Notes under the pieces: model-generated
Told to the model about the DNA's origin: nothing
Database searches by the model: none
The model's input: the letters and a program-made list of their open reading frames with translations, nothing else
Shown here: positions 1 to 16,794 of the stretch, piece after piece
Layout of the letters: every line of letters begins with the position of its first letter
Position numbering within the stretch: the stretch's first letter is position 1
DNA from: Escherichia coli
Lineage (GTDB): Bacteria; Pseudomonadota; Gammaproteobacteria; Enterobacterales; Enterobacteriaceae
NCBI RefSeq assembly: GCF_030384885.1
Contig: NZ_CP128613.1
Strand: one strand, 5' to 3'
DNA length: 64,000 bases
Made by a program: the position numbers and the translations under genes

Positions 1-99
1 TTGTCGCCTCTGAAAAACCTCCATTTTGCTCATCCTGGACTAATCATTATCATTCTCTACAAATTCTATGGCGTTAATTTTTCGTTGGAGTGAAAATTA

Positions 100-275
100 T
101 TGCGGTAAAGTTTGGTAGATTTTAGTGGGTATAGAGTTATCTAAAATATTTACTTTTTTAATCAATGGATTAAGTGTTCTTTAACATAATGGATGTGTTG
201 TTTGTGTGATCCTGTAAAGTTGGTAGATTGTGACTGGCTTAAAAAATCATTAATTAATAATAGGTTATGTTTAGA
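100..275 (+). promoter_or_regulatory. AT-rich CRISPR leader upstream of the first repeat of the 16-repeat array; contains the motif agttggtagattgt shared with the leader of the second array
   Basis: AT-rich, no ORF, directly abuts repeat 1; motif gtaaagtt(t)ggtagatt occurs twice here (about 105-121 and 222-238) and again at about 22183-22200. Confidence 0.6.
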
Positions 276-1219
276 GAGTTCCCCGCGCCAGCGGGGATAA
301 ACCGCAAAAACATGCCTCTAATCGCCTCATATCGCCGAGTTCCCCGCGCCAGCGGGGATAAACCGTGAATTCGCGGTCGTCGGTAGTTATTGTCACAGAG
401 TTCCCCGCGCCAGCGGGGATAAACCGTTTATATCCCCGATACGCACGACGCGGACCGGGAGTTCCCCGCGCCAGCGGGGATAAACCGCCCCGCCCTCCTG
501 CACCACGATCGCGCCCTCAGAGTTCCCCGCGCCAGCGGGGATAAACCGCCTTACGCCTGCAACCTCGTGCCACAGTTCATGAGTTCCCCGCGCCAGCGGG
601 GATAAACCGGTTTTCAGTCCAGCGGCAGCTACGAGGAATCGGAGTTCCCCGCGCCAGCGGGGATAAACCGGATGGTTGAGGGTTATATGATGCCAGTTTA
701 CGGAGTTCCCCGCGCCAGCGGGGATAAACCGGCAAAAACCGGGCAATCGCAAAAAGGCGTAATGAGTTCCCCGCGCCAGCGGGGATAAACCGACGCTGAT
801 TATTCCGTACCAGTATTGTGAGGCGAGTTCCCCGCGCCAGCGGGGATAAACCGGATGACTCTGTGGCCTGGGTGGTTACCTGTCTGAGTTCCCCGCGCCA
901 GCGGGGATAAACCGCCCTGCCCGTTTTGCGGGAGTTCCAATGTTGAGAGTTCCCCGCGCCAGCGGGGATAAACCGCATTATTTTTAGACGGTTGCGGGAT
1001 TGGATTAGAGTTCCCCGCGCCAGCGGGGATAAACCGCGGCCTGGTCGATATCTCGCTGCTAGCGTCAAGAGTTCCCCGCGCCAGCGGGGATAAACCGTAA
1101 GATGATCTCACGGAATTGAACGAACTACGGAGTTCCCCGCGCCAGCGGGGATAAACCGGACACAGAGCGCTGCTATAGCGCCTATGCCAAGAGTTCCCCG
1201 CACCAGCGGGAATAAACCA
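276..1219 (+). CRISPR. Type I-E CRISPR array: 16 repeats of 29 bp (GAGTTCCCCGCGCCAGCGGGGATAAACCG) and 15 spacers of 32 bp, 61-bp period; last repeat degenerate (gagttccccgcaccagcgggaataaacca)
   Basis: Repeat starts read at 276, 337, 398 ... 1191, every 61 bp; spacers all unique; partially palindromic repeat typical of E. coli I-E. Confidence 0.97.
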
Positions 1220-1691
1220 CCATATAACCCGTTATCTCTTTCTCAAGTTTTTATATTAGCAGTACTCGTATTAAGCAACATATCCACGTAACACCTCATG
1301 TTCAAAATAGCTCTCCATATATGAGAAGTTCACAATTATCGATACAAAAAATCAAATTTAATTAAAGTGTTAGTTGTATGATACTTAAATCATTAAGAAA
1401 TTATCATATATTATTTTTTTAATATTGAATTGATGTTTGTTAATTTTTTCTTTAGGATAATGGTTTGTTTTTTAAGCTTATTATTCATTGATTAAGTAAT
1501 AAATCTGGAAGTTTGTCTTTGTTTTGAGGCTAATGAGTGATTTTACATAATCGCCTCTATACGCTGTTGATGAATAGTTCTTATGAATAAAGATATCCAG
1601 TTCATACTTTAAGTGAAAATTGATAAAGTACGATTCGCATAGTCTTTTATTCTAAGGACATCGATTGTAGTTAATATTCCTTGTAAAAACA

Positions 1692-1762
1692 GGGATAAAC
1701 CGGACTTGTTATAATTCTTGATGTTGTCGAACTTATGTTCCCCGCGCCAGCGGGGATAACCA
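1692..1762 (+). repeat. CRISPR remnant: truncated repeat 3' half (gggataaaccg), one 32-bp spacer-like segment, one degenerate repeat (atgttccccgcgccagcggggataacc)
   Basis: Direct reading of sequence about 470 bp downstream of the main array, just upstream of the ygcE 3' end. Confidence 0.6.
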
Positions 1763-1808
1763 TTCAGGTATGTTCAGGCCGGGCATTTTCCCGCCCGGCC
1801 TTCCTCAC

Positions 1809-3287
1809 TTACGCATTCGACCAGCTCTGGATCGAATCTGCATTCCCCAACTCACCATGCATCACTTCATACGATTTTTTCAGGATCACATCAGTGTGTT
1901 TGGTTAGGTCTTTGAAAATGCCTTTATTCATCGCGTCGTAGCGTTTGGCATTGCTCTCAATCGGCATAAAGATATCTTTCACGCGAACCATTTTGTCGAC
2001 AGCCGTTGCGTAATCCGGGTATAGCCCCAGACCTACCGCCGTATTAATCGCTGCCCCCAGGCTTGCACAACCGTTAATGGCGTTACGTCGTGCCGGAAGG
2101 TTGAACACGTCGGCAAAAATTTGCATAAACAGATCGCTGTTCGAACCGCCGCCAGTAATGATCACATGTTTCGCAAAGTGATTCATTTCATGACACATAT
2201 TGTCGTAATTGTTCTTCAGCGTCAGCGCCACGCTTTCCAGTATCGAACGATATATCCATGCGTAATCCATGCTGGAATCAAAGCCGATCATAATCCCGCG
2301 TTTGTACGGTTCCCACGGATTGGTCAGCCAGTCCAGCACCGTCATCAGACCATTACAGCCAGGCGGCACACAAGAAGCTTTTTTGTTGAGCAAATCTTCC
2401 GGTGAAAGATCCTGTGCCCTGGCATCCTGAATTAACGACTCGCCTAACATGTCGCGAAGCCAGCTCACCGTCCACATGCCTTTGCGAATACCGTAACCTT
2501 CATACAGCAAGGTTTGCGGAATAGAAGACATAATCGGCCAGTACGCTACCGGATCTTTCGGCAGTACTTTGCCGTTCATCATCAACGCGATGTAAGTGCC
2601 AAGAGAAATTACCGCCGTTTCATCATCCAGTAACCCGGCTCCCAGTGCTTCTACCGGTTTATCACTGGTGGTACAAACAACTGGCAGCCCAGCCGGGAAA
2701 TGTGTCGCCAGCGCGGCTTGTGGTGTGATATGCCCAAGAACAGTGCCCGGCATTTGCACATCAAAAAGCATCTGTCGGGGAATATTAAACTTCTCCATTA
2801 CCGCGGTATCTTCGCTCCATGCCCAGGTCTTATAATCCACCGGCCACTGACCAAAATAGTTGGCGATATTGTCTTTAAACTCGCCGGTTAAACGGTGTGT
2901 CAGATAACCTGAAAAAGAGGTGGCATATGCCACATCAGGATTGGTGTGCTCGTAGGGACGTGTTACGCGTGCATCCTGCCAGCTAATCAACGGCGCAGCT
3001 GGCGTGCCATCGGCTTTCAATAACGCACGGCAGCAACGGATAGATCCCAGACCAATGCCGACAATATCTTCTTTATTCCCGGCAAACTGGCTCATCAAAT
3101 CGTGACCAGCAAAACATAATGATGCCCATAAATCATCGTCAGGATGTTCTGCGGTATCGGCATCTGGAGTGTGCATCGGTTGTAATAAGCCTTTGCCTTC
3201 GCAAACCACGTTACCTTCCAGATCGTACATCACCACTTTTGTGCTCTGACTTCCGCCATCAATCCCTATGATGTATTTTTTCGACAT
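1809..3287 (-). CDS. ygcE: FGGY-family carbohydrate kinase (492 aa)
   Basis: Full-length ORF; N-terminus MSKKYIIGIDGGSQSTK typical of the glycerol/xylulose kinase fold. Confidence 0.9.
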   Translation of the reverse strand: MSKKYIIGIDGGSQSTKVVMYDLEGNVVCEGKGLLQPMHTPDADTAEHPDDDLWASLCFAGHDLMSQFAGNKEDIVGIGLGSIRCCRALLKADGTPAAPLISWQDARVTRPYEHTNPDVAYATSFSGYLTHRLTGEFKDNIANYFGQWPVDYKTWAWSEDTAVMEKFNIPRQMLFDVQMPGTVLGHITPQAALATHFPAGLPVVCTTSDKPVEALGAGLLDDETAVISLGTYIALMMNGKVLPKDPVAYWPIMSSIPQTLLYEGYGIRKGMWTVSWLRDMLGESLIQDARAQDLSPEDLLNKKASCVPPGCNGLMTVLDWLTNPWEPYKRGIMIGFDSSMDYAWIYRSILESVALTLKNNYDNMCHEMNHFAKHVIITGGGSNSDLFMQIFADVFNLPARRNAINGCASLGAAINTAVGLGLYPDYATAVDKMVRVKDIFMPIESNAKRYDAMNKGIFKDLTKHTDVILKKSYEVMHGELGNADSIQSWSNA

Positions 3288-3313
3288 GATTTTTCTCCTG
3301 TAATTTTCCTGGC

Positions 3314-4591
3314 TTACTTGCTGCTAGCCATTGCGGGGGTGCTATCAGCAGTACGAATTTTTTGGAACAGCAAAAAGGTAAAGACGATCACCATGCCAAG
3401 CGCCGCCATGCCCATCAGCCACATATTGCGGTAGGCTTCTGCAGCGGGCAGGGTGTCTTGCCAGTAGCCGATAATTGGGTAAACGAAGACATCCGGCAGA
3501 AATCCAATCACCGAACAAATACCTACCGTGGTGCCCATAATGTAAGACGGTGTTCTCGCTTCGCCAGGGCAGGCCCAGTACAGCCCGCGTGAGGCGTAAC
3601 AGGTGAATCCCAGAAGTAAAATCAGACCAATCCCCATCGCGACCGATTGCGGGTTAGAGTTCGTGATGAGCAGGGCAGTTAACGCCAGCAGGCCGAGTAC
3701 GGAAAGTATTTGAATCACGCGGGTAGGGGATTTCACTTTGCTGTAGGTGGTGATAATGCCACCAAGTGGGCCGCACAGTGCGCGGAAGATTTTGTTGATC
3801 ACAATCCCCATGTAGCTCGCCGCCACCAGCGACATGCCGTACATTTCGGTCAGATAGTTGGTGGAGTAACTCAGAATGGCGTAGATGGTGAAGACGCCAA
3901 AAATCACCATGCTGCAGTACCATGTGGTGCTGATGCGCAAAACGGCCAGGATGTCGCTAAGCTGGAATGACTGTTTTTCTTCGTTATTGGCATTGCGCAG
4001 GTTGTTGTTATCGCTAACAAAAAACCAGCACAGAATCCCCAATAAAATGTAGACCACACTATAGATGATAATGACCGTTTTCAGGCTGGCGCTGTCATCC
4101 GGTGCAAAGCGAGAAAAGACCCACATGGTAAACACCGCCAGCGACATTACACCGACGCCGCGCAGCCCTTCCATCCAGCCCATAATTTTCCCCTGCTCGC
4201 TATGATCGCCAAGCAACGATGCGGCTTTAATCGACACCGACCACAGCATTAAAATCGTCGTTATCGCAAAGGCGACCTGAATACAGAGCATTACCCACAG
4301 CGGTGGATACGTTGCCATTAACAGACCCAGCAATCCGGTAATGATCATCGCGGAAGTAATCATTTTGCGATGCGAAAATTTATCGGCAATAACGCCGCTG
4401 GGGGCATAAAGAATAATAGCCGCAATACCAAAGGTACTCATTATTAAACCTATCTCGGTATTGCTGAATCCCATAAATTTAGCCATGGGAATTTGATAAA
4501 TATAACGTAAATAAGCCAGATCAAAACTAACGCCGCCACTAAAACTAATTATCGCGAGGGTTATCCAACGGCGATATGAGTTGTGTTGCAT
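3314..4591 (-). CDS. yqcE: MFS transporter (425 aa)
   Basis: Full-length hydrophobic ORF with multiple predicted TM segments. Confidence 0.88.
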   Translation of the reverse strand: MQHNSYRRWITLAIISFSGGVSFDLAYLRYIYQIPMAKFMGFSNTEIGLIMSTFGIAAIILYAPSGVIADKFSHRKMITSAMIITGLLGLLMATYPPLWVMLCIQVAFAITTILMLWSVSIKAASLLGDHSEQGKIMGWMEGLRGVGVMSLAVFTMWVFSRFAPDDSASLKTVIIIYSVVYILLGILCWFFVSDNNNLRNANNEEKQSFQLSDILAVLRISTTWYCSMVIFGVFTIYAILSYSTNYLTEMYGMSLVAASYMGIVINKIFRALCGPLGGIITTYSKVKSPTRVIQILSVLGLLALTALLITNSNPQSVAMGIGLILLLGFTCYASRGLYWACPGEARTPSYIMGTTVGICSVIGFLPDVFVYPIIGYWQDTLPAAEAYRNMWLMGMAALGMVIVFTFLLFQKIRTADSTPAMASSK

Positions 4592-4769
4592 ATCGTATTC
4601 CCATTTGTAATAGACAAAAAAAAGAGAAAAGTAAGCCGCCCTTTCAGGTGGATTACTTTTCTCAGGTCTCTAGTAATTGCAATAAGAAATAACATGGAAA
4701 GCAGGGGTGTTGTGTGAGAGTAGTCACGCTTCTGCTTTTTAAAATTATTTGACAATTCGAATATCACAC

Positions 4770-4785
4770 TGTGATTACGATCACA
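4770..4785. promoter_or_regulatory. Perfect CRP-type palindrome TGTGAttacgaTCACA in the yqcE/ygcW divergent intergenic region
   Basis: Sequence tgtgattacgatcaca matches the TGTGA-N6-TCACA consensus exactly; an overlapping palindrome atcacactgtgat lies immediately upstream. Confidence 0.55.
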
Positions 4786-4909
4786 TTAGCGCTTATGCCC
4801 TTATGCTAAAAATTATCTCCAGTTACCAGAGATAATGAGAAAGGTAACTTCCCTCTCGCGGGGGAAGTTACCTTTCTTTTTTTTTGCCTTACGGAAATTG
4901 GAGCTAACT

Positions 4910-5695
4910 ATGTCAATCGAATCTCTCAATGCGTTCTCAATGGATTTTTTCTCCCTGAAAGGTAAAACCGCAATTGTTACTGGTGGGAATAGCGGTTTAG
5001 GCCAGGCATTTGCCATGGCACTGGCAAAAGCAGGCGCAAATATCTTTATTCCTAGTTTCGTTAAAGATAATGGCGAAACAAAGGAAATGATTGAAAAACA
5101 GGGGGTTGAGGTGGGCTTCATGCAGGTGGATATCACCGCAGAAGGCGCGCCGCAGAAGATAATTGCCGCCTGTTGTGAACGTTTCGGCACCGTCGATATT
5201 CTGGTTAACAATGCCGGTATATGTAAGCTGAATAAGGTGCTGGATTTCGGTCGTGCCGACTGGGACCCGATGATTGACGTGAACCTGACCGCCGCATTCG
5301 AGTTAAGCTACGAAGCGGCAAAAATTATGATCCCGCAGAAAAGCGGTAAAATCATTAATATCTGTTCACTGTTTTCTTACTTAGGTGGTCAATGGTCTCC
5401 TGCTTATTCTGCCACTAAACACGCCCTTGCCGGATTTACCAAAGCCTATTGCGATGAATTAGGTCAATATAATATTCAGGTAAATGGTATTGCCCCAGGA
5501 TATTACGCTACCGATATCACCCTGGCGACACGCAGTAATCCAGAAACCAATCAGCGCGTTCTTGATCATATTCCAGCAAACCGTTGGGGCGATACTCAGG
5601 ATTTAATGGGCGCAGCCATATTTCTCGCAAGTCCGGCATCGAATTATGTCAACGGGCATTTATTAGTGGTTGATGGCGGTTATTTAGTGCGCTAA
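4910..5695 (+). CDS. ygcW: Short-chain dehydrogenase/reductase, KduD-like (261 aa)
   Basis: ATG at 4910 preceded by ggag; TGGNSGLG Rossmann motif; the longer track ORF from 4835 is rejected as an upstream in-frame extension. Confidence 0.88.
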   Translation: MSIESLNAFSMDFFSLKGKTAIVTGGNSGLGQAFAMALAKAGANIFIPSFVKDNGETKEMIEKQGVEVGFMQVDITAEGAPQKIIAACCERFGTVDILVNNAGICKLNKVLDFGRADWDPMIDVNLTAAFELSYEAAKIMIPQKSGKIINICSLFSYLGGQWSPAYSATKHALAGFTKAYCDELGQYNIQVNGIAPGYYATDITLATRSNPETNQRVLDHIPANRWGDTQDLMGAAIFLASPASNYVNGHLLVVDGGYLVR

Positions 5696-5764
5696 TCCAT
5701 AACGGTGGTTTCTGATTTCTTTTATTAATGACTATTCCATTTTTATTATCAGGAAGGAATTACT

Positions 5765-7219
5765 ATGTCTTTATCTCGCGCAGCGATTGTCGACCAGCTA
5801 AAGGAAATTGTTGGTGCAGATCGCGTAATTACCGATGAAACGGTATTGAAGAAAAACAGTATTGATCGTTTTCGTAAATTTCCGGATATTCATGGTATTT
5901 ATACTTTGCCTATTCCGGCAGCGGTCGTAAAACTCGGTTCCACTGAGCAAGTGTCCCGTGTGCTGAATTTTATGAATGCACACAAAATTAACGGCGTACC
6001 ACGTACCGGTGCTTCCGCTACCGAAGGCGGGCTGGAAACCGTTGTGGAAAACTCGGTGGTGCTTGATGGCTCTGCAATGAATCAAATCATTAATATTGAT
6101 ATAGAGAATATGCAGGCGACGGCGCAATGTGGCGTTCCGCTGGAAGTGCTGGAAAACGCGTTGCGTGAAAAAGGTTACACCACGGGGCACTCTCCGCAGT
6201 CAAAACCGTTGGCGCAGATGGGTGGACTGGTGGCGACCCGTAGTATTGGGCAGTTCTCCACACTCTACGGCGCAATCGAGGATATGGTCGTTGGCCTGGA
6301 AGCAGTACTGGCTGATGGCACCGTGACACGCATTAAAAACGTGCCACGACGCGCGGCGGGTCCGGACATTCGTCACATCATCATCGGCAACGAAGGCGCA
6401 TTGTGCTATATCACTGAAGTCACTGTGAAAATCTTTAAATTCACCCCGGAAAACAACCTCTTCTACGGCTATATCCTGGAAGACATGAAAACCGGCTTCA
6501 ACATCCTGCGTGAAATCATGGTGGAAGGATATCGTCCGTCGATCGCTCGTTTGTATGACGCTGAAGATGGCACCCAACACTTCACCCATTTTGCCGACGG
6601 AAAATGCGTGCTGATCTTTATGGCTGAAGGTAACCCTCGCATTGCGAAGGCGACGGGCGAAGGGATTGCTGAAATCGTGGCACGTTACCCGCAATGCCAG
6701 CGCGTGGACAGCAAGCTGATCGAAACCTGGTTTAACAACCTGAACTGGGGACCGGATAAAGTGGCTGCCGAACGTGTGCAGATCCTCAAAACCGGCAACA
6801 TGGGCTTTACCACCGAAGTGTCCGGCTGCTGGAGTTGCATACACGAAATCTACGAAAGCGTTATTAACCGTATTCGTACCGAGTTCGCGCACGCCGACGA
6901 CATCACCATGCTGGGCGGTCACTCCTCTCATAGCTATCAGAACGGCACCAACATGTACTTCGTCTACGACTACAACGTCGTTGACTGTAAGCCGGAAGAG
7001 GAAATCGACAAATACCACAATCCGCTCAACAAAATCATCTGCGAAGAAACCATTCGCCTCGGCGGTTCGATGGTACACCATCACGGTATCGGTAAACATC
7101 GTGTTCACTGGAGCAAACTGGAACACGGCAGCGCGTGGACATTGCTGGAAGGGCTGAAAAAACAGTTCGATCCTAACGGTATTATGAATACGGGTACTAT
7201 CTATCCGATTGAAAAATAA
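5765..7219 (+). CDS. ygcU: FAD-linked oxidoreductase, GlcD / alkyl-DHAP synthase-like (484 aa)
   Basis: Full-length ORF with FAD-binding PCMH-type architecture by composition and synteny. Confidence 0.85.
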   Translation: MSLSRAAIVDQLKEIVGADRVITDETVLKKNSIDRFRKFPDIHGIYTLPIPAAVVKLGSTEQVSRVLNFMNAHKINGVPRTGASATEGGLETVVENSVVLDGSAMNQIINIDIENMQATAQCGVPLEVLENALREKGYTTGHSPQSKPLAQMGGLVATRSIGQFSTLYGAIEDMVVGLEAVLADGTVTRIKNVPRRAAGPDIRHIIIGNEGALCYITEVTVKIFKFTPENNLFYGYILEDMKTGFNILREIMVEGYRPSIARLYDAEDGTQHFTHFADGKCVLIFMAEGNPRIAKATGEGIAEIVARYPQCQRVDSKLIETWFNNLNWGPDKVAAERVQILKTGNMGFTTEVSGCWSCIHEIYESVINRIRTEFAHADDITMLGGHSSHSYQNGTNMYFVYDYNVVDCKPEEEIDKYHNPLNKIICEETIRLGGSMVHHHGIGKHRVHWSKLEHGSAWTLLEGLKKQFDPNGIMNTGTIYPIEK

Positions 7220-7312
7220 TGTGTCAGGCAGCGTTTCGCGATGACGGGGCGTTGTCTTTTCGGCTTCTCAACCGGGAAGCCGTTCTTATTACCGGACAAT
7301 GAAGGGGTAAAG

Positions 7313-8650
7313 ATGAACACTTCACCGGTGCGAATGGATGATTTACCGCTTAACCGTTTTCACTGTCGAATTGCTGCGCTGACTTTCGGCGCACACCTGA
7401 CCGACGGTTATGTTCTCGGCGTCATTGGTTACGCCATAATTCAGCTTACTCCAGCCATGCAACTGACGCCGTTTATGGCGGGAATGATCGGCGGCTCGGC
7501 GCTACTTGGCCTGTTTATCGGCAGCCTGGTTTTGGGCTGGATCTCCGACCATATCGGGCGGCAAAAAATCTTCACCTTCAGCTTTATGCTGATTACGCTC
7601 GCCTCGTTCCTGCAATTTTTTGCCACCACGCCAGAGCATCTTATTGGACTACGCATTTTGATCGGCATTGGTCTGGGAGGCGACTATTCAGTAGGTCACA
7701 CCTTGCTGGCTGAATTTTCCCCGCGCCGCCATCGCGGTATTTTGCTAGGCGCTTTCAGCGTGGTGTGGACCGTAGGTTATGTGTTGGCAAGTCTTGCCGG
7801 ACATCACTTTATTAGCGAAAGCCCCGAAGCCTGGCGATGGTTACTTGCATCGGCGGCATTTCCTGCCCTGTTGATTACGTTGTTACGTTGGGGAACGCCA
7901 GAATCGCCACGCTGGCTACTGCGCCAGGGGCGTTTTGCAGAAGCTCACGCTATCGTGCATCGCTATTTTGGTCCCCATGTTTTACTGGGCGATGAAGTGG
8001 CAACGGCGACCCATAAACACATCAAAACCTTGTTCTCTTCGCGCTACTGGCGGCGCACGGCGTTTAACAGCGTCTTCTTTGTCTGCCTCGTAATCCCATG
8101 GTTTGTGATTTATACCTGGCTGCCAACTATCGCCCAAACTATTGGACTGGAAGATGCGCTGACTGCCAGCCTGATGCTTAATGCGTTGTTAATTGTGGGC
8201 GCGCTGCTGGGATTATTTCTGACGCACCTGCTGGCACATCGCAAATTTTTGCTGGGAAGTTTTTTGCTGCTGGCGGCAACGCTGGTAGTGATGGCCTGTT
8301 TGCCTTCTGGCAGTTCATTAACGCTGCTGCTTTTTGTTCTCTTCAGCACCACCATTTCGGCAGTCAGTAATCTGGTGGGCATTTTGCCTGCGGAAAGTTT
8401 TCCTACTGACATTCGCTCGCTGGGTGTCGGTTTTGCCACTGCCATGAGTCGGTTGGGGGCGGCGGTAAGTACTGGCCTGCTGCCGTGGGTGCTGGCGCAG
8501 TGGGGAATGCAAGTCACCTTATTGCTCCTGGCGGCAGTGTTGTTGGTTGGTTTTGTTGTGACCTGGCTATGGGCACCAGAAACCAAAGCACTCCCGCTGG
8601 TGGCGGCGGGAAATGTAGGAGGTACTAATGAACATTCTGTTAGCATTTAA
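7313..8650 (+). CDS. ygcS: MFS sugar-transporter-like protein (445 aa)
   Basis: Start ATG at 7313 after gaagggg SD; hydrophobic multi-TM ORF. Confidence 0.85.
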   Translation: MNTSPVRMDDLPLNRFHCRIAALTFGAHLTDGYVLGVIGYAIIQLTPAMQLTPFMAGMIGGSALLGLFIGSLVLGWISDHIGRQKIFTFSFMLITLASFLQFFATTPEHLIGLRILIGIGLGGDYSVGHTLLAEFSPRRHRGILLGAFSVVWTVGYVLASLAGHHFISESPEAWRWLLASAAFPALLITLLRWGTPESPRWLLRQGRFAEAHAIVHRYFGPHVLLGDEVATATHKHIKTLFSSRYWRRTAFNSVFFVCLVIPWFVIYTWLPTIAQTIGLEDALTASLMLNALLIVGALLGLFLTHLLAHRKFLLGSFLLLAATLVVMACLPSGSSLTLLLFVLFSTTISAVSNLVGILPAESFPTDIRSLGVGFATAMSRLGAAVSTGLLPWVLAQWGMQVTLLLLAAVLLVGFVVTWLWAPETKALPLVAAGNVGGTNEHSVSI

Positions 8651-9407
8651 AGCCGAACCGGATGCCGGAATGCTGGCGGAAAAAGAGTGGCAGGCAGCGG
8701 CTCAGGGTAATAGCGGACCGGATGTTTCGCTTCTGCGAAGTTTACTCGGTGCTGATGAACAGGCTGCCGCCGCGCTGCTGTTGGCGCAGAGAAAAAACGG
8801 TACGTCGATGTCTTTAACCGCGTTGAGCATGGGGGATGAACGGGCGTTGCACTGGCTGCGCTATCTCATGGCTCTTGGGTTTGAGGAAGCTGTATTGCTG
8901 GAGACGGCGGCAGATCTGCGCTTTGCGCCGGAATTTGTCGCTCGCCATATTGCCGAATGGCAGCGCCAGAATCCGCTGGATCTGATCATTACTGGCTGCC
9001 AGAGCAGCGAAGGGCAGAACGGGCAAACGCCATTTTTGCTGGCGGAAATGCTGACCTGGCCCTGTTTTACCCAGGTGGAGCGTTTTACTCTCGACGCACC
9101 GTTTATCTCGCTCGAACAGCGTACTGAACATGGATTACGCTGTTGTCGGGTTCGCTTGCCTGCGGTGATTGCCGTGCGCCAGTGTGGCGAGGTGGCCTTG
9201 CCAGTACCGGGAATGCGCCAGCGAATGGCTGCGGGGAAAGCTGAAATTATCCGCAAAACTGTTACTGCTGAATCGTCAGCGATGCAGTGCCGGCAACTGG
9301 AAAGGCCAGAGCAACGACGCGGTGCAACGCTTCTTGATGGGCAAACGGTAGCAGAAAAAGCGCAAAAGCTATGGCAGGACTATTTACGCCAAAGGATGCA
9401 GCCATGA
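8628..9407 (+). CDS. ygcR: Electron transfer flavoprotein beta-subunit-like (FixA-like) protein (259 aa)
   Basis: ORF overlaps the ygcS 3' end; ETF-beta-like sequence; synteny with ygcQ. Confidence 0.82.
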   Translation: MNILLAFKAEPDAGMLAEKEWQAAAQGNSGPDVSLLRSLLGADEQAAAALLLAQRKNGTSMSLTALSMGDERALHWLRYLMALGFEEAVLLETAADLRFAPEFVARHIAEWQRQNPLDLIITGCQSSEGQNGQTPFLLAEMLTWPCFTQVERFTLDAPFISLEQRTEHGLRCCRVRLPAVIAVRQCGEVALPVPGMRQRMAAGKAEIIRKTVTAESSAMQCRQLERPEQRRGATLLDGQTVAEKAQKLWQDYLRQRMQP

Positions 9408-10264
9408 ATATCGCCATTGTGACAATAAATCAGGAACATGCCGCAATAGCGGGCTGGCTGGCGGAGCAGGATTTCAGCGGCAGCACATTAACGCACTGGC
9501 AAATCGAGCCGCAGCCGATGGTCGCGGAACAGGTGCTGGATGCGCTGGTAGAACAGTGGCAGCGAACGCCTGCGGACGTTGTTCTCTTTCCGCCGGGAAC
9601 GTTTGGCGATGAACTGGCTACCCGCCTGTCCTGGCGTTTACATGGTGCCAGTATATGCCAGGTGACTTCATTAAATATTCCAACCGGAAGCGTACGCAAA
9701 TCCCACTGGGGAAATGCGCTAACGGCGACGCTGCAAACAGAAAAACGCCCGCTATGCCTTTCCCTTGCCCGCCAGGCGGGAGCAGTGAAAAATGCCACGT
9801 TGCCCTCTGGTATGCAGCAACTGAACATTGTCCCCGGCGCGCTTCCCGACTGGCTGGTTAGCACAGAGGATCTGAAAAATGTTACCCACGACCCATTAGC
9901 TGAGGCCAGACGGGTGCTGGTGGTGGGGCAGGGCGGAGAGGCAGATAACCAGGAAATCGCTATGCTGGCAGAAAAGCTGGGAGCCGAAGCGGGCTACAGT
10001 CGGGCGCGAGTAATGAACGGTGGCGTTGATGCCGAAAAAGTGATTGGTATTTCCGGACATCTGCTGGCACCTGAGGTGTGTATTGTTGTTGGCGCTTCCG
10101 GCGCAGCAGCGTTAATGGCGGGCGTCCGCAATAGCAAGTTTGTGGTGGCGATTAATCATGACGCCAGCGCGGCGGTATTTTCACAGGCAGATGTTGGCGT
10201 GGTTGATGACTGGAAAGCGGTGCTGGAGGCACTGGTGACAACCATTCACGCAGATTGCCAATAA
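9404..10264 (+). CDS. ygcQ: Electron transfer flavoprotein alpha-subunit-like (FixB-like) protein (286 aa)
   Basis: ATG at 9404 with AGGA SD, 4-bp overlap with ygcR; C-terminal ETF FAD-binding-like region. Confidence 0.82.
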   Translation: MNIAIVTINQEHAAIAGWLAEQDFSGSTLTHWQIEPQPMVAEQVLDALVEQWQRTPADVVLFPPGTFGDELATRLSWRLHGASICQVTSLNIPTGSVRKSHWGNALTATLQTEKRPLCLSLARQAGAVKNATLPSGMQQLNIVPGALPDWLVSTEDLKNVTHDPLAEARRVLVVGQGGEADNQEIAMLAEKLGAEAGYSRARVMNGGVDAEKVIGISGHLLAPEVCIVVGASGAAALMAGVRNSKFVVAINHDASAAVFSQADVGVVDDWKAVLEALVTTIHADCQ

Positions 10265-10307
10265 CGTGCTGCCGGATGATCCTGTCTACGGTTCTGGGCT
10301 GGGGACT

Positions 10308-10377
10308 GTAGGCCTGATAAGACGCGTCAAGCGTCGTATCAGGCGCTGAATGCCGGATTAGGCATGTGGCCTACAAA
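10308..10377. repeat. REP/BIME repetitive extragenic palindromes
   Basis: gtaggcctgataagacgcg...cgtcgtatcaggcg and gccggattaggcatgtggcctac inverted GC-rich palindromes typical of E. coli REP. Confidence 0.75.
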
Positions 10378-10409
10378 TCACACAAATTCAATTCGTTACG
10401 ATTATCTCG

Positions 10410-10985
10410 TCAAAGCAATTTTTTCGCTAACGTCCAGACCCCGGTATTCGTGGTAGAAAGCGCCACTACACCGGCGTTAATCGCATTACGCGCATCTTCT
10501 TCATCGCACACCAGCCCGCCAGCAATCAGCGGCTGGTGGATTTTCTCCGTTACCCAGCCCAGCACTTTAGGCATACAGCCTGGCAGAATTTCAATACAAT
10601 CAGGATTCGATTGCGCAACCTGCTTATCAATGTTGTGAAAAGAAATCGAGTCGACAATAAACAAGCGATGAATACAGAAAAAGCCTTCCGCTCTCGCCGC
10701 TTTTAGCATTGACGCTTTGGTACTGATAATGCCGTCCGCCTCGGTCACCAGTTTCAGAAACTGAATTACTACTTCTTTATTTGACGCGCCTTCCAGCAAA
10801 TCGACATGAATAAAAGCATATTTTCCGGCGTTCTTAATCTTTTTGACGATATGACTGATGGTGCAAATATTGCCGTATAACACGGAAATAAACTGGCATT
10901 CAGAATCGATTGCCAACTGCAGGCTGGCATTATCTTTAACGGCAGCAATCACCGGATTCTGGCGGAGCAGGTGTAAGAGGGGCAT
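10410..10985 (-). CDS. ygcP: GlpP-like glycerol-3-phosphate-responsive antiterminator family protein (191 aa)
   Basis: Full-length ORF; family assignment from memory. Confidence 0.8.
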   Translation of the reverse strand: MPLLHLLRQNPVIAAVKDNASLQLAIDSECQFISVLYGNICTISHIVKKIKNAGKYAFIHVDLLEGASNKEVVIQFLKLVTEADGIISTKASMLKAARAEGFFCIHRLFIVDSISFHNIDKQVAQSNPDCIEILPGCMPKVLGWVTEKIHQPLIAGGLVCDEEDARNAINAGVVALSTTNTGVWTLAKKLL

Positions 10986-11001
10986 AAATTATCCTTATTA
11001 T

Positions 11002-11262
11002 TTATCCAAAGCGGTAGGTGATGCCGAATCCGGAAGGCGGATAGCGCCACTGTTGTAGGTTTTTTTCATCACACAGTAAACGGCAGGTGCCACACTCCAG
11101 GCAGCCGCGATAATCAACGCGTAAGTCGCCTTCCGGCGTGAGCGAAAAAAGACCAGCCGGACAAGCGTTAATCAACCGTTCTGCCGTCTGGCGCTCAACG
11201 GAGTCTGCCGGAACAATATGTGGCGCATCAGCAGCGCGCCAGAGATTACGGGCTACAGACAT
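11002..11262 (-). CDS. ygcO: Ferredoxin-like protein, FixX-like (86 aa)
   Basis: Start at MSVARN with AGGAG SD; cysteine cluster CLECGTCRLLC. Confidence 0.8.
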   Translation of the reverse strand: MSVARNLWRAADAPHIVPADSVERQTAERLINACPAGLFSLTPEGDLRVDYRGCLECGTCRLLCDEKNLQQWRYPPSGFGITYRFG

Positions 11263-12524
11263 CGAATACTCCTGACAACATCGCCCGCCAGATGCCACAG
11301 GCCATGACGACGTAAATGACGCCAGAGCAACTGGCGCAGCGGCGGAACAGGTTTATCACCTTGATCCCATAAATCACGGGAAATATCCTGCATTAACGCA
11401 GGCCACTTACGGTACCAGCCCGGGCGTTGCAAAAGCGCCGGAACATGCTGATAACGCTGTAGAACATCCCACAACATGCTGTGCTCTACATTGTGATGAT
11501 AAAGCGGAAACAGATTTTGCGGCTCGCGGTGCTGACAGGCGCTTATCAGCGTGTGTGCCGCCGCCTGCGCGCCAGTCAGCGCCATATCCATGCCGCGCAC
11601 GGAAATTCCGGTATTGACGCAACTGCGCAACGTATCGCCCACCAGCAGCCAGCCGTTACCGCCATATTGCACCGGCATACTGTGCAGCCCACCTTCCGGC
11701 ACCAGATGCGCGCCATACTCCAGTGATTCCGTGTTTTTGATAAGCGGGCGCACTGCCGGATGCGTTTTAAAGCGAGCCAGCAGCTCGCTTGCCGGAACAC
11801 GACTTTGCGTAAGTGAAGAGAGCGGGCAAACAATCCCTAACGAGAGCGTTTGTTGATTAGTATAAAGAAATGCGCCGCCGGGTAAGTCATCACAGATTTC
11901 GCCGCTGAATAACAACGCTGCGCCTTCGTTATTCTCCAGATGAAAACGTTCTTCAATAGCGGATGTTTCCAGTGACAGAACTTCTTTAATCCCCAACGCC
12001 ATCACTTCGCCAGCAGGACGAGTCACTAACCCGTGACGCTCAGACAGGACGCTGTTGGCACCTTCTGCCAGCACCACATAACGGGCGCGGAGAATATCGT
12101 CACCACAAATAACGCCGCAAACTCTGCCTTTTTCTTCATACAGTGCATCCACCGTCGTACCGGGGATGCATTCGACACCTTCTTTTTCGGCTTCGGCAAC
12201 CAGCCACGGATCGAATCGCGCACGTAATACACTCCAGGATTCACCGTCGGGCTGTAAGCTGGAAAACGTCGTTGCGCCATCGGGCGTTAACAGAGAAAGG
12301 CTTTCGTGAGTGATGCGTCGTTCAAGGGGCGCGGTCAGGTGAAATTGAGGGAGGAGTTCCGCAAGTGCATGGGTATATAACCGCCCGCCGGAAAGATTTT
12401 TGCTGCCGGGAATTTCAGCGCGTTCCAGTAACAAAACGGATAAACCCGCTCGCGCGCAGCGTAACGCGCAAGCAGTGCCTGCAATACCGGCACCAATAAT
12501 AATAATGTCGCAGTCGTCTTCCAT
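11253..12524 (-). CDS. ygcN: FAD-dependent oxidoreductase, FixC / ETF-ubiquinone-oxidoreductase-like (423 aa)
   Basis: N-terminal DIIIIGAGIAG dinucleotide-binding motif; start taken at MEDDCD. Confidence 0.82.
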   Translation of the reverse strand: MEDDCDIIIIGAGIAGTACALRCARAGLSVLLLERAEIPGSKNLSGGRLYTHALAELLPQFHLTAPLERRITHESLSLLTPDGATTFSSLQPDGESWSVLRARFDPWLVAEAEKEGVECIPGTTVDALYEEKGRVCGVICGDDILRARYVVLAEGANSVLSERHGLVTRPAGEVMALGIKEVLSLETSAIEERFHLENNEGAALLFSGEICDDLPGGAFLYTNQQTLSLGIVCPLSSLTQSRVPASELLARFKTHPAVRPLIKNTESLEYGAHLVPEGGLHSMPVQYGGNGWLLVGDTLRSCVNTGISVRGMDMALTGAQAAAHTLISACQHREPQNLFPLYHHNVEHSMLWDVLQRYQHVPALLQRPGWYRKWPALMQDISRDLWDQGDKPVPPLRQLLWRHLRRHGLWHLAGDVVRSIRCL

Positions 12525-12601
12525 GTCATGCCCCAGATATCCAGAACACAACACCCTAACATAGCGTTACTTAAGGGAAATTGACCGCCGACACACTCTT
12601 A

Positions 12602-12967
12602 TCATTCGCCGCGATAGATACAACCTGCGGTGCAGGTTTCTTTTACCATCACCGCACTTAACAGCGGCACAACGGGTTTAACCTGATCCCAAATCCATTT
12701 TGCTAAAACTTCGCTGGTTGGGTTTTCCAGACCTGGAATATCATTGAGATAATGGTGATCGAGGCGCTCATAAGTTGGCTTAAACGCTGCTTTCAGTTCA
12801 GCGAAATCGATAATCCAGCCCGTATGCGGATCGACTTCCCCGGTAATTTCCAGTCGCACCATAAAGGAATGCCCGTGCAGGCGACCACATTTATGCCCTT
12901 CCGGGACGTGTGGTAAGCGGTGAGCGGCTTCGAAGGTGAAATCTTTAAATAACGTGGTGGACATCAT
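12602..12967 (-). CDS. queD: 6-carboxy-5,6,7,8-tetrahydropterin synthase (121 aa)
   Basis: [19 protein letters not shown]...GHSF motif pattern of the PTPS/QueD family. Confidence 0.88.
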
Positions 12968-13282
12968 AATTTCTCTACAGGACGATAAAACCGCCGTAGA
13001 GTACCGGAAAGGCTGTTTTTTCGCATTATCTAAAACGACTTTGTTGCGCAAAATCGCTGATTTATCTTAATGATTGGATAAATTCATTTGTTTTTCATTG
13101 GGTTGAGTAATCTATTTTGTTGTTAAAGACTATTGCTAAAACAGGTTAGTCGATTTGGTTATTAGTTATCGCTATCCCGTCTTTAATCCACACCGTTCAT
13201 CCCGTTAACCTTACCTTCTCTTCTGTTTTATGGGCGCTGACAGGGCGCAGAAACAGCTTTGCTTACTGGAACATAACGACGC

Positions 13283-15082
13283 ATGACGACACAGGTCCCA
13301 CCTTCCGCGTTGCTTCCGTTGAACCCGGAGCAACTGGCACGCCTTCAGGCGGCCACGACCGATTTAACTCCCACCCAGCTTGCCTGGGTTTCTGGCTATT
13401 TCTGGGGCGTGCTCAACCAGCAGCCTGCTGCGCTTACAGCGACGCCAGCGCCCGCCGCAGAAATGCCGGGTATAACTATTATCTCCGCTTCGCAAACCGG
13501 CAATGCGCGCCGGGTTGCTGAAACATTACGCGATGATTTATTAGCGGCAAAACTGAACGTTAAGCTGGTGAACGCGGGCGACTATAAATTCAAACAAATC
13601 GCCAGCGAAAAACTGCTCATCGTGGTGACGTCAACGCAAGGTGAAGGGGAACCGCCGGAAGAGGCCGTCGCGCTGCATAAGTTCCTGTTCTCCAAAAAAG
13701 CGCCGAAGCTGGAAAACACCGCGTTTGCCGTGTTTAGTCTCGGCGATAGCTCTTATGAATTTTTCTGCCAGTCCGGGAAAGATTTCGATAGCAAGCTGGC
13801 GGAACTGGGCGGTGAACGCCTGCTCGACCGTGTCGATGCCGACGTTGAATACCAGGCTGCTGCCAGCGAGTGGCGCGCCCGCGTGGTCGATGTTCTTAAA
13901 TCGCGCGCGCCTGTCGCAGCACCTTCACAATCCGTCGCTACTGGCGCGGTAAATGAAATCCACACCAGCCCGTACAGCAAAGACGCGCCGCTGGTGGCGA
14001 GCCTTTCGGTTAACCAGAAAATTACCGGGCGTAACTCTGAAAAAGACGTTCGCCATATCGAAATTGACTTAGGTGACTCTGGCCTGCGTTATCAGCCGGG
14101 TGACGCGCTGGGCGTCTGGTATCAGAACGATCCGGCACTGGTGAAAGAACTTGTCGAACTGCTGTGGCTGAAAGGTGATGAACCTGTCACCGTTGAGGGC
14201 AAAACCCTGCCGCTGAATGAGGCGCTACAGTGGCATTTTGAACTCACCGTCAACACCGCCAACATCGTTGAGAACTACGCCACGCTAACCCGCAGTGAAA
14301 CGCTGCTGCCGCTGGTGGGCGATAAATCGAAGTTACAGCATTACGCCGCGACGACGCCGATTGTCGACATGGTGCGTTTTTCTCCGGCACAGCTTGACGC
14401 TGAAGCCCTGATTAACTTGCTGCGCCCGCTGACGCCGCGCCTGTACTCCATCGCCTCCTCGCAGGCGGAAGTCGAGAACGAAGTACACGTCACCGTTGGC
14501 GTGGTGCGTTATGACGTGGAAGGCCGCGCCCGTGCTGGCGGTGCCTCCAGCTTCCTTGCGGACCGTGTGGAAGAAGAGGGCGAAGTCCGCGTATTTATCG
14601 AACATAACGACAACTTCCGCCTACCAGCCAACCCGGAAACGCCGGTGATTATGATTGGCCCGGGCACCGGCATCGCACCGTTCCGCGCCTTTATGCAGCA
14701 ACGTGCTGCTGACGAAGCGCCGGGTAAAAACTGGCTGTTCTTCGGCAACCCACACTTTACGGAAGATTTCCTCTACCAGGTGGAGTGGCAGCGCTACGTC
14801 AAAGAGGGCGTGCTGACACGTATCGATCTCGCCTGGTCGCGCGATCAAAAAGAAAAAATTTACGTACAAGACAAACTGCGCGAACAGGGCGCAGAGCTGT
14901 GGCGCTGGATCAATGACGGTGCCCACATTTATGTCTGCGGCGACGCTAATCGCATGGCGAAAGACGTTGAACAGGCACTTCTGGAAGTGATTGCCGAATT
15001 TGGTGGCATGGACACCGAAGCGGCGGATGAATTTTTAAGTGAGCTGCGCGTAGAGCGCCGTTATCAGCGAGATGTCTACTAA
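13283..15082 (+). CDS. cysJ: Sulfite reductase [NADPH] flavoprotein alpha component (599 aa)
   Basis: Flavodoxin-like plus FAD/NADPH reductase domains; synteny cysJIH. Confidence 0.95.
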
Positions 15083-16794
15083 TGAACGAAAAACATCCAG
15101 GGCCTTTAGTGGTCGAAGGAAAACTGACAGACGCCGAGCGCATGAAGCTTGAGAGCAACTACCTGCGCGGGACCATTGCGGAAGATTTAAACGACGGTCT
15201 GACCGGCGGCTTTAAGGGCGACAACTTCCTGCTGATCCGTTTCCACGGTATGTATCAGCAGGATGACCGCGATATCCGCGCCGAACGTGCTGAACAGAAG
15301 CTGGAACCGCGTCATGCGATGCTGCTGCGCTGCCGTCTGCCGGGTGGGGTGATCACCACTAAACAGTGGCAGGCAATTGATAAATTCGCCGGTGAAAACA
15401 CCATTTATGGCAGCATTCGCCTGACCAACCGCCAGACGTTCCAGTTCCACGGCATTCTGAAAAAGAACGTCAAACCGGTGCACCAGATGCTGCATTCGGT
15501 CGGTCTTGATGCGCTGGCGACCGCCAACGACATGAACCGTAATGTACTCTGCACCTCGAACCCATTTGAATCTCAGTTGCACGCGGAAGCGTATGAGTGG
15601 GCGAAGAAAATCTCTGAACATCTGCTGCCGCGTACCCGCGCCTACGCGGAGATCTGGCTCGATCAGGAGAAAGTCGCCACCACCGATGAAGAACCCATCC
15701 TCGGTCAGACCTACCTGCCGCGTAAATTCAAAACCACGGTAGTGATCCCGCCGCAGAACGATATCGATCTGCACGCCAACGACATGAACTTTGTGGCGAT
15801 CGCGGAAAACGGCAAGCTGGTGGGCTTCAACCTGCTGGTGGGCGGTGGGCTTTCTATCGAACACGGCAACAAGAAAACCTACGCCCGCACGGCGAGCGAG
15901 TTTGGCTATCTGCCACTGGAGCATACGCTGGCGGTGGCGGAAGCGGTCGTTACCACTCAGCGTGACTGGGGTAATCGTACTGACCGTAAAAACGCCAAAA
16001 CCAAATACACGCTGGAGCGCGTGGGTGTTGAGACGTTTAAAGCAGAAGTGGAACGTCGCGCGGGGATCAAATTTGAGCCGATCCGTCCTTATGAATTTAC
16101 CGGACGCGGCGATCGTATCGGCTGGGTAAAAGGGATCGATGACAAATGGCACCTGACGCTGTTTATCGAAAATGGCCGAATTCTTGATTATCCGGGGCGT
16201 CCGCTGAAAACCGGCCTGCTGGAGATCGCGAAGATCCACAAAGGTGATTTCCGCATTACGGCGAACCAGAATCTGATCATCGCCGGTGTACCGGAAAGCG
16301 AGAAAGCGAAGATTGAGAAGATCGCCAAAGAGAGCGGATTGATGAATGCCGTCACGCCGCAGCGCGAAAACTCAATGGCCTGCGTGTCATTCCCGACTTG
16401 CCCGTTGGCGATGGCGGAAGCGGAGCGTTTCCTGCCGTCGTTTATCGATAACATCGATAATTTAATGGCGAAACATGGTGTCAGCGATGAGCACATCGTG
16501 ATGCGTGTAACAGGCTGCCCGAACGGTTGTGGTCGCGCGATGCTGGCGGAAGTGGGCCTGGTGGGTAAAGCGCCGGGTCGCTACAACCTGCATCTTGGCG
16601 GCAACCGCATGGGAACGCGTATCCCACGGATGTATAAAGAAAACATCACCGAGCCGGAAATCCTGGCGACGCTTGATGAACTGATAGGGCGCTGGGCGAA
16701 AGAGCGTGAAGCGGGTGAAGGCTTCGGTGACTTTACGGTGCGTGCGGGCATCATTCGCCCGGTGCTCGATCCGGCGCGTGATTTGTGGGATTAA
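15082..16794 (+). CDS. cysI: Sulfite reductase [NADPH] hemoprotein beta component (570 aa)
   Basis: ATG overlaps the cysJ stop; siroheme/4Fe-4S sulfite reductase family sequence. Confidence 0.95.

Follow-up and report, generated by a model that had tools for sequence, protein, structure and literature searches.

The ygc cluster of Escherichia coli: a candidate inducible catabolic system with a predicted GlpP-type leader RNA switch and an alkyl-DHAP-synthase-like flavoenzyme

Within a 64-kb window of the Escherichia coli chromosome (contig NZ_CP128613.1; "the window" hereafter means this whole stretch), our analysis of the ten-gene ygc cluster at positions 1809-12524 revealed a conserved RNA element in two operon leaders that would be the target of the cluster's own regulator, YgcP, and a flavoenzyme, YgcU, that is closer in sequence to alkyl-dihydroxyacetone phosphate (alkyl-DHAP) synthase than to GlcD. 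We consider it highly probable, from sequence comparison, that the system is governed by a CRP-dependent start and a YgcP-held antiterminator, and are equally confident of a three-enzyme catabolic core, consisting of a short-chain dehydrogenase/reductase (SDR), YgcU, and an FGGY kinase, with an accessory electron-transfer flavoprotein (ETF). We rate as an even call the reading that the cluster serves for the inducible catabolism of a small hydroxylated compound that is not a sugar. Our best guess is a substituted glycerol processed via a substituted DHAP, although for substituted-DHAP chemistry as such our confidence falls somewhat short of even. The cluster itself is already known as a block of unassigned E. 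coli genes; the cross-phylum core, the catabolic AGPS-type site, the YgcP-target leader, and the link to quaternary-amine transport appear to be new relative to the literature searched and to Rfam.

The regulator covers its family model from end to end. Specifically, YgcP (10410-10985, minus strand; the last gene of ygcNOP) matches PF04309 (G3P_antiterm) over model positions 1-173 of 173 (210 bits) and PDB entry 3kts with an E value of 9e-29, and the GlpP-like label given to it by an earlier, sequence-only reading of this DNA has now gained a matching RNA target. The 318-bp spacer between yqcE and ygcW carries two strong intrinsic terminators, one toward each operon. The ygcW leader RNA (4819-4887, plus strand), delimited by a terminator scan, folds, covariation, and R1, a covariance model built from 45 element copies, has AGUUACC (4821-4827) as its 5' antiterminator strand, which is followed by the purine-rich loop AGAGAUAAUGAGAAA and by a terminator (4837-4878, plus strand) with a perfect 19-bp stem and a U9 tract ending about 22-24 nt 5' of the ATG. 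The yqcE leader RNA (4616-4679, minus strand), delimited by R1, folds, and the motif GAGAAAAGUAA, has AAUUACU (4678-4672) as its 5' antiterminator strand, a hairpin at 4663-4624 (minus strand), and a U8 tract ending about 20 nt before the ATG. Both terminator hairpins open with GAGAAARGUAA, and R1 finds exactly two true copies in the window, at 4833-4884 on the plus strand (62 bits, E 3e-17) and at 4618-4667 on the minus strand (56 bits, E 3e-15).

Covariation was found in both of the competing helices. The terminator stem shows compensatory changes in 9 of 16 pairs. Directly 5' of each hairpin lies a conserved segment, RTTACYAGAG, which in its first seven bases complements bases 7-13 of the terminator 5' arm, and at least six of these seven antiterminator pairs can form in 115 of 116 unique leaders, compared with 12% for shuffled upstream sequence. 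The two strands change together (AGUAACU/AGUUACU, AGUAAU[U/C]/AAUUACU, GGU[A/G]ACU/AGUUACC, GGCGACU/AGUUGCC, and AGCGACC/GGUCGCC); in an alignment of 35 sequences, the antiterminator helix is 94% paired, with two-sided changes in six of its seven pairs. None of 500 shuffles reached the observed covariation, and slid controls gave 16-54% pairing. The antiterminator alone has a folding energy of -6.7 (ygcW) or -1.4 kcal/mol (yqcE), and the terminator-containing leaders have -33.8 and -20.7 kcal/mol, respectively. For such predicted folds, a weak antiterminator beside a strong terminator is the expected look of an antiterminator that is stabilized by a protein.

The same element recurs far beyond E. 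coli. The hairpin ahead of the SDR gene is kept in sequence in enterobacteria, Photobacterium, Geosporobacter, Dethiosulfatibacter, Halobacillus, Thalassobacillus, Virgibacillus, and uncultured Bacillota, with variant forms in Sporomusa and Saccharopolyspora, and the yqcE leader element is present in essentially every Enterobacterales locus that has the intergenic region, as well as in Photobacterium. Further, among 37 non-enteric loci, the element and ygcP co-occur (two-by-two counts of 17, 1, 2, and 17; Fisher p = 2e-7), and the two exceptions are contigs that end beside the core. A metagenome scan with a 17-nt leader motif led to 80 fetched loci, of which about 11 had a true element, again in the known architectures and with no new enzyme class (e.g., lipase or phosphodiesterase). 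Within E. coli, the non-coding spacer between yqcE and ygcW, with 95-99% identity over 5046 genomes, is better kept than the genes, and the element region carries no annotated feature in any of them. The element is likewise without a match in Rfam (positions 1-14000 of the window, E up to 1; three weak, irrelevant matches).

The spacer also carries two CRP-like sites, each centered 41.5 bp from a predicted leader start. The perfect consensus TGTGAttacgaTCACA (4770-4785, no mismatches, center 4777.5) faces the ygcW leader start at 4819, and TGTGAgagtagTCACg (4713-4728, one mismatch, center 4720.5) faces the yqcE leader start at 4679; such spacing would correspond to class II CRP promoter geometry. 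In Firmicute loci, the -10 box ends a few bases 5' of the RTTACY segment, which is consistent with the antiterminator strand being at the extreme 5' end of the RNA. In agreement with these sites, yqcE-ygcE is reported to be Crp-activated (PMC8085971), and the CRP targets that PhyloScan ranks at the top include both yqcE and ygcW (PMC1794230).

The cluster comprises three transcription units, yqcE-ygcE (minus strand), ygcW-ygcU-ygcS-ygcR-ygcQ (plus strand), and ygcN-ygcO-ygcP (minus strand). Since the first two share the same CRP geometry and leader element, their co-regulation is likely. The suggestion that the ten genes form a coherent unit without an assigned function is supported.

In the model that we favor, CRP-cAMP (cyclic AMP) would start both divergent transcripts, whose first seven nucleotides (AGUUACY or AAUUACU) would pair with the terminator 5' arm about 15 nt downstream. 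Without help, the terminator would win, and transcription would halt ahead of yqcE-ygcE and ygcWUSRQ. Ligand-loaded YgcP would attach to the purine-rich loop AGAG-N-GAGAAA and keep the antiterminator in place, allowing read-through into both operons. A full-length PF04309 regulator, a leader terminator, and a competing RNA structure, all of which mark GlpP-type systems, were found here from sequence. In Bacillus subtilis, GlpP with glycerol-3-phosphate disrupts the glpD leader terminator; by analogy, the YgcP ligand would be a pathway intermediate, probably the kinase product, and, because the regulated enzyme set differs from that of GlpP, it is presumably not glycerol-3-phosphate. A few points speak against this model: the action of YgcP on leader RNA through a ligand is proposed by analogy with GlpP, as regards both binding and ligand; the starts at 4819 (plus strand) and 4679 (minus strand) are predicted from geometry alone; and a search with R1 upstream of ygcN found no element, so that expression of the regulator and of the FixCX-like genes may be separate from that of the operons that the switch controls.

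One could also suppose that the cluster is a cryptic or decaying remnant without present function in E. coli, in keeping with decades of K-12 work that brought neither phenotype nor substrate, with the fast evolution of its ETF and FixCX-like genes, and with the highly polymorphic region in which it lies. We find this highly improbable. At least 80% of the cluster is found in 5060 of 5426 complete E. coli genomes (93%), its ten reading frames are all intact in both the open reading frame list and RefSeq, the leader region is conserved as described above, and ratios of nonsynonymous to synonymous substitution (dN/dS), computed against K-12, E. albertii, Klebsiella, and Citrobacter, indicate purifying selection on all ten genes (about 0.01-0.2). 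The lowest ratios belong to ygcW, ygcU, and ygcP (0.01-0.03), followed by ygcE, yqcE, and ygcS (0.03-0.08) and by ygcR, ygcQ, ygcN, and ygcO (about 0.07-0.2; ygcR alone, 0.10-0.20), such that the ratio for the ETF/FixCX set is about 3-10 times that of the core genes. As a separate observation, positions 1809-15082 are unusually polymorphic in E. coli, with synonymous divergence from K-12 of 0.08-0.33 (ygc genes, queD, and cysJ); only 1 of 5431 records reaches at least 99% identity across the 10.7 kb, and most lie at 90-95%.

To define what the switch controls, we tabulated the neighbors of YgcU homologues in 80 fetched genomic loci, with co-occurrence counted over 82 loci. The SDR YgcW adjoins YgcU in 76 of the 82 (62-96% identity), an FGGY kinase lies beside it in 70, and a YgcP homologue is present in 55, across Enterobacterales, Vibrionaceae, Desulfobacterota, SAR324, Bacillota, and Actinomycetes. 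Of all the proteins in the system, YgcU is conserved best, with 64-99% identity over the loci and at least 64% in all 80 genome loci; its homologues in Sporomusa, Alkalihalobacillus, Desulfobacula, and Photobacterium are at least 71% identical, and both YgcU and YgcW are 62-79% identical to the E. coli proteins in Firmicutes, Actinomycetes, and Desulfobacterota.

The electron-transfer set is distributed differently. ETF pairs are present in 59-61 loci (Enterobacteriaceae, anaerobic Bacillota, Desulfobacterota, and Photobacterium) and, despite full 10-kb flanks, are missing from aerobic Bacillaceae (Halobacillus, Virgibacillus, Thalassobacillus, and Alkalihalobacillus), Actinomycetes (Saccharopolyspora and Prauserella), one SAR324 genome, Erwinia/Pantoea/Izhakiella, and Serratia proteamaculans. 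The FixCX-like pair, ygcN and ygcO, is restricted to Enterobacterales among the 80 genome loci (36 loci). A metagenome contig (L165, 9403-14347) carries, in order, a leader element, SDR, YgcU, FixC-like and FixX-like genes, a second leader element, and the kinase, with no ETF genes separating YgcU from the FixCX-like pair. Because the ETF and FixCX genes are missing from many lineages and have higher dN/dS, we regard the electron-transfer set as a lineage-specific accessory that is yet under purifying selection. The ETF/FixCX set, to which the sequence-only reading had coupled the oxidation step, is not central; the suggestion in that reading of possibly anaerobic conditions is compatible with the gene distribution.

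YgcU (5765-7219, plus strand) is the component whose likely chemistry departs furthest from its earlier description. It combines PF01565 and PF02913 (FAD_binding_4 and FAD-oxidase_C), the architecture of AGPS, and its best PDB match is the AGPS structure 4bby (E 5e-40 with the single sequence, 7e-56 with the family profile), ahead of glycolate oxidase, LctD, D-lactate dehydrogenase, and D-2-hydroxyglutarate dehydrogenase. In the alignment, R262, Y398, and the H438-H440 segment of YgcU correspond to R419, Y578, and the H615-H617 loop of AGPS, and all of these residues are invariant in 14 YgcU homologues from several phyla; at the Y578 position, PDB entry 4bca has Phe, unlike 4bby. The AGPS N-terminal domain, which helps form a long hydrophobic substrate tunnel, is not found in YgcU: the alignment starts at AGPS 179 and YgcU 23, and, with 484 residues against 658, YgcU has no counterpart of the first ~155-180 AGPS residues. 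YgcU is therefore not classed as AGPS proper; it has AGPS-type catalytic machinery in a shorter protein and in a catabolic context. A 2026 paper still terms it an "FAD-binding oxidoreductase" (PMC13012123).

Two rival explanations take opposite views of this enzyme. In the first, YgcU would be a genuine alkyl-DHAP synthase and the cluster would make ether lipids. The catalytic residues are kept, and some sources do name the homologues "alkyldihydroxyacetonephosphate synthase". Nevertheless, the N-terminal region is missing, the context, in which transporters and a kinase come with CRP control and an inducible antiterminator, includes no acyltransferase, and E. coli is not known to have ether lipids, so that we hold this to be the most improbable reading of all.

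In the second, which includes the suggestion of the sequence-only reading, a polyol or sugar acid would be imported, phosphorylated, and oxidized by a GlcD-like YgcU, with electrons passing to the ETF and FixCX-like proteins, as in LctD/EtfAB or GlpD. Several aspects recommend it: GlcD and LctD share PF01565 and PF02913 with YgcU and are its next-best solved relatives, ETF genes directly follow YgcU in 59-61 loci, CRP control is usual for sugar operons, and the SDR is of the KduD/gluconate-5-dehydrogenase type, albeit with scores below the equivalog cut-offs (348 bits against 369 and 275 against 339), which do not make it a KduD. We nonetheless think it unlikely. In LDHD and D2HGDH structures (D-lactate and D-2-hydroxyglutarate dehydrogenase, respectively), a His/His/Glu set of residues binds metal; YgcU lacks the Glu and second His of this triad (His, His, and the Glu of EHG in GlcD/LctD-type dehydrogenases) and has Y398 and His-His-His instead. 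No recurring aldolase, isomerase, or dehydratase family adjoins the core in the 82 tabulated loci, transporters under the same switch in other phyla are of the betaine/choline/carnitine type and an MttB methyltransferase occurs there as well, and the ETF is dispensable in many lineages.

A second GlcD-like oxidase (FADox2) sits beside YgcU in 17 non-enteric loci, and this protein keeps GH..H and GEHG, with LctD as its nearest PDB entry. In four loci (L004, at 13187-16591, and L063, L065, and L068), an LctD-like flavin adenine dinucleotide (FAD) oxidase follows the YgcU-ETF genes with an ETF pair of its own, whose extended alpha subunit has only a faint Pfam match to a ferredoxin domain; these loci hold two flavoenzyme-ETF modules side by side.

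Gene content outside the enterobacteria points to the class of substrate. In Enterobacterales, the transporters are major facilitator superfamily (MFS) proteins. Elsewhere, the leader element precedes SDR, yqcE, YgcU, BCCT, OsmF/OpuC-type ABC permease, and, at one locus, MttB genes. BCCT-family transporters occur in 14 loci (subfamily model, 279 bits; nearest equivalogs are betaine, carnitine, and choline carriers) and an OsmF/OpuC-type ABC system in about seven, with several of these transporter genes immediately 3' of the leader element. Anaerobic loci add an MttB-family methyltransferase, in some cases co-operonic (W-K-U-etfB-etfA-MttB in L115 and L129, the letters denoting YgcW, kinase, and YgcU), along with a cognate corrinoid protein and a methyl-tetrahydrofolate methyltransferase. 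Further, Erwiniaceae and a SAR324 genome add a succinate-semialdehyde-dehydrogenase (SSADH)-like aldehyde dehydrogenase, a homologue of formaldehyde-activating enzyme (Fae), and an aldo-keto reductase whose relatives include L-glyceraldehyde-3-phosphate and methylglyoxal reductases. In one Bacillaceae locus, an aspartase-like lyase is found together with an aldehyde dehydrogenase and a Zn alcohol dehydrogenase. Taken together, the BCCT, OsmF/OpuC, MttB, and aldehyde-handling neighbors point to a non-enteric substrate that is not a sugar but a small quaternary-ammonium-type compound, either cationic or zwitterionic, and the very high cross-phylum identity of YgcW and YgcU suggests that E. coli shares this chemistry.

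As to the details of these loci, the Fae homologue scores above the NCBIfam cut-off and is accompanied by the aldo-keto reductase and SSADH-like genes in L034, L035, L039, L048, and L049 (about 1-5400 in these five) and in L050 (5033-7390); Serratia proteamaculans L045 has the dehydrogenase and reductase with no Fae homologue, and L042 is without the Fae/reductase/SSADH operon. By reasoning, 2,3-dihydroxypropane-1-sulfonate (DHPS), glycerophosphocholine, tetritols, and S-glycerylcysteine were set aside as candidates, none of which fits the transporter types, the missing downstream enzymes, and the AGPS-like site all at once.

YgcE (1809-3287, minus strand), the second gene of the yqcE-ygcE operon by open reading frame and RefSeq call, is an FGGY-family kinase that matches the NCBIfam XylB, LsrK, and GlpK models, each under its cut-off, and has the autoinducer-2 (AI-2) kinase and glycerol kinases as its nearest solved relatives in PDB. 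YgcW (4910-5695, plus strand), the first gene of ygcWUSRQ, is an NAD(P)-dependent SDR by RefSeq and NCBIfam. In the pathway that we tentatively propose, the substrate would be imported by YqcE and/or YgcS, after which YgcW would oxidize a secondary alcohol and YgcE phosphorylate a primary one, in either order, yielding a ketone-phosphate such as a 1-substituted DHAP. YgcU, with its Arg, Tyr, His-His-His, and FAD, would then activate the carbon beside the ketone and expel or oxidize off the substituent, which in other phyla would apparently be of the quaternary-ammonium type. This would leave a C3 product at the level of DHAP that requires no further dedicated enzyme; the chief reason for assuming a C3 product is that no other enzyme is conserved. 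In E. coli, the reduced flavin would be reoxidized through a private ETF, YgcRQ, and then through the FixCX-like YgcNO to the quinone pool. The redox partner could serve either an oxidative cleavage that gives an aldehyde, which would fit the aldehyde-handling genes of some lineages, or an ETF that keeps the flavin oxidized without oxygen; its presence in anaerobes and facultative enterics, and not in aerobes, is compatible with both.

Set against this proposal are the following aspects. AGPS chemistry is redox-neutral, and a dedicated ETF fits a true dehydrogenase better. YgcU retains one His (H386) of the dehydrogenase metal site. YgcE is no nearer to glycerol kinase than to xylulokinase or LsrK. 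Finally, with MFS rather than BCCT or OpuC transporters, E. coli could use a substrate different from that of marine bacteria and Firmicutes.

A more specific version of the substituted-DHAP proposal, which we consider a long shot, would make YgcU a catabolic counterpart of alkyl-DHAP synthase that cleaves a non-hydrolysable bond, ether or C-N, by which a betaine head group is attached to a glycerol backbone. One such substrate would be glyceryl-trimethylhomoserine, the remnant of deacylated betaine lipids of the diacylglyceryl-trimethylhomoserine (DGTS) type, which would pass from kinase to SDR to a substituted DHAP and on to DHAP and free betaine. Breakdown of a C4 hydroxy-betaine would fit the lyase and the aldehyde and alcohol dehydrogenases of two loci (L003 and L051), as well as the SSADH-like, aldo-keto reductase, and Fae genes of Erwiniaceae and SAR324.

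Electrons might also flow the other way. In this reductive alternative, YgcNO and YgcRQ would pass low-potential electrons to YgcU, which would reductively cleave the bond beside the ketone, a role like the one that FixABCX is proposed to have with the carnitine (cai) pathway. E. coli fixABCX is linked to the reductive carnitine pathway, and carnitine is also a quaternary amine; moreover, strict anaerobes have ETF genes between YgcU and the LctD-like dehydrogenase, a possible electron donor. We judge this direction improbable, given that the core runs without an ETF in aerobic Bacillaceae, Actinomycetes, and Erwiniaceae, that acetol phosphate, the product to be expected, does not belong to central metabolism, and that YgcR is nearer to canonical non-bifurcating ETF beta subunits than to FixA.

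The electron-transfer proteins themselves are ygcR (8628-9407, plus strand), a divergent ETF beta subunit; ygcQ (9404-10264, plus strand), a short (286-residue) ETF alpha subunit without a ferredoxin domain; ygcO (11002-11262, minus strand), a FixX-like ferredoxin; and ygcN (11253-12524, minus strand), a FixC-like FAD oxidoreductase and putative ETF:quinone oxidoreductase. Their NCBIfam scores lie well under the cut-offs (in brackets) for FixA (YgcR, 33 bits [219]), FixB (YgcQ, 63 [549]), FixC (YgcN, 359 [610]), and FixX (YgcO, 82 [166]), with YgcR also at 42 bits against a cut-off of 350 and YgcN at 359-379 bits, again below cut-off. They are therefore paralogues and not FixABCX itself, and the description of a FixABCX-like set stands in that looser sense, with YgcN and YgcO FixC- and FixX-like. 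Electron-bifurcating ETFs are marked by a second FAD on the beta subunit or a ferredoxin domain on the alpha subunit; YgcQ is without the latter, YgcR is slightly nearer to the canonical AMP-binding ETF beta of Paracoccus and human, and YgcRQ may be of either type. The FAD-binding C-terminal half of YgcQ aligns to 5ow0, LctC, and human ETF.

RefSeq calls exactly ten genes over 1809-12524 (ygcE, yqcE, ygcW, ygcU, ygcS, ygcR, ygcQ, ygcP, ygcO, and ygcN), the calls being taken from the E. coli 2013C-4282 chromosome, which is 100% identical across this interval. This bears out the ten contiguous genes of the sequence-only reading, as well as its flanks, a CRISPR array (about 276-1219) on one side and queD and cysJIH (from 12602) on the other. 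Its family labels also held for the FGGY kinase, both MFS transporters, the SDR, the ETF, and the GlpP-like protein, and needed revision for YgcU, which is nearer to alkyl-DHAP synthase than "GlcD-like" implied. None of the ygc proteins reaches an NCBIfam equivalog cut-off, so no protein name can be transferred, and the K-12 annotation still lists all ten genes as "putative". The absence of an assigned substrate was likewise upheld, in that a full-text literature search, whose coverage leaves out many subscription-journal papers, found no substrate or pathway for the ygc genes; one apparent match for "ygcO" was a typographical error for ycgO.

The two transporters are yqcE (3314-4591, minus strand), anion:cation symporter-like by RefSeq and NCBIfam, and ygcS (7241-8650, plus strand), which by the same sources resembles sugar porters and aromatic-acid symporters. 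Overexpression of ygcS raises nicotinamide mononucleotide production from nicotinamide (PMC8601175). In Erwiniaceae, ygcS lies in a separate operon with the Fae, aldo-keto reductase, and SSADH-like genes. The K-12 version of ygcS starts at 7313, the call in this strain being 24 codons longer (7241), and a GC-rich hairpin at 7261-7282, between the ygcU stop and the K-12-type start, is a possible intercistronic structure. The gap between the convergent ygcQ and ygcP holds a palindromic element (10311-10371) resembling repetitive extragenic palindromes and bacterial interspersed mosaic elements (REP/BIME), with a weak Rfam match to naRNA4 (31 bits, under the gathering score). Beyond cysH, the matching RefSeq record has a Hok/Gef family toxin gene (about 17866-18018) and a frameshifted cas3 (from about 18214).

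The ygc genes are one of the larger gene blocks of K-12 to which no function has been assigned, and their RNA switch and regulator could be used as a reporter in screens for the inducer. The leader RNA, if it acts as predicted, brings GlpP-type antitermination into Gram-negative bacteria and marks out a regulon that spans phyla. The YgcU homologues show that alkyl-DHAP-synthase catalytic machinery, familiar from animal ether-lipid synthesis, is widespread in bacterial catabolic operons, which suggests a new, bond-cleaving use. Trimethylamine-related metabolism of gut and marine communities could also be touched by the connection with quaternary-amine transporters and methyltransferases. If the betaine-lipid proposal were true, bacteria from E. 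coli to marine Bacillaceae and sulfate reducers would have a new route for harvesting betaine-lipid-like head groups, switched by a new class of GlpP-type riboregulator.

Each part of the system is reminiscent of a known one. The switch most resembles that of B. subtilis GlpP and its glpD, glpFK, and glpTQ leaders, where a PF04309 protein, like YgcP, acts on short-leader terminators with catabolite control on top. In the glpD leader, base pairing of GGUC with GACC in the terminator arm spans a loop rich in GAGA..UGAG..A (PMC9604022, Table S4), and in both systems a 5' strand is able to pair with the terminator 5' arm over a purine-rich GAGA..UGAG..A loop. However, the stem sequences differ (GAGAAAAGUAAC vs GAGAGACCACAGC), and the ygc element is found in Gram-negative enterobacteria, is joined to predicted class II CRP promoters, and has no counterpart in Rfam. 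Neither GlpP nor YgcP is mentioned in a 2025 review of RNA-binding antiterminators.

Peroxisomal AGPS (EC 2.5.1.26; PDB 4bby and 2uuu) is the best solved relative of YgcU, with two domains alike and Arg419, Tyr578, and His615-617 kept, but YgcU belongs to a transporter-linked, inducible catabolic operon and is ETF-paired in many lineages, whereas a redox-neutral enzyme would need no ETF. LctBCD of Acetobacterium woodii (PDB 7qh2), an ETF-dependent lactate dehydrogenase, likewise has a PF01565/PF02913 flavoenzyme adjoining etfB-etfA; in contrast, YgcU is without the 2-hydroxy-acid dehydrogenase metal triad, YgcQ is without the ferredoxin domain, and in several anaerobes a separate LctD-like oxidase, with its own LctC-like ETF, adjoins YgcU. 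Finally, E. coli FixABCX and YdiQRST have the same four-protein layout as YgcRQNO, and YgcN and YgcO are clearly related to FixC and FixX, but the ygc set is split across two convergent operons, YgcR and YgcQ are extremely divergent, and all four proteins fall below the family cut-offs.

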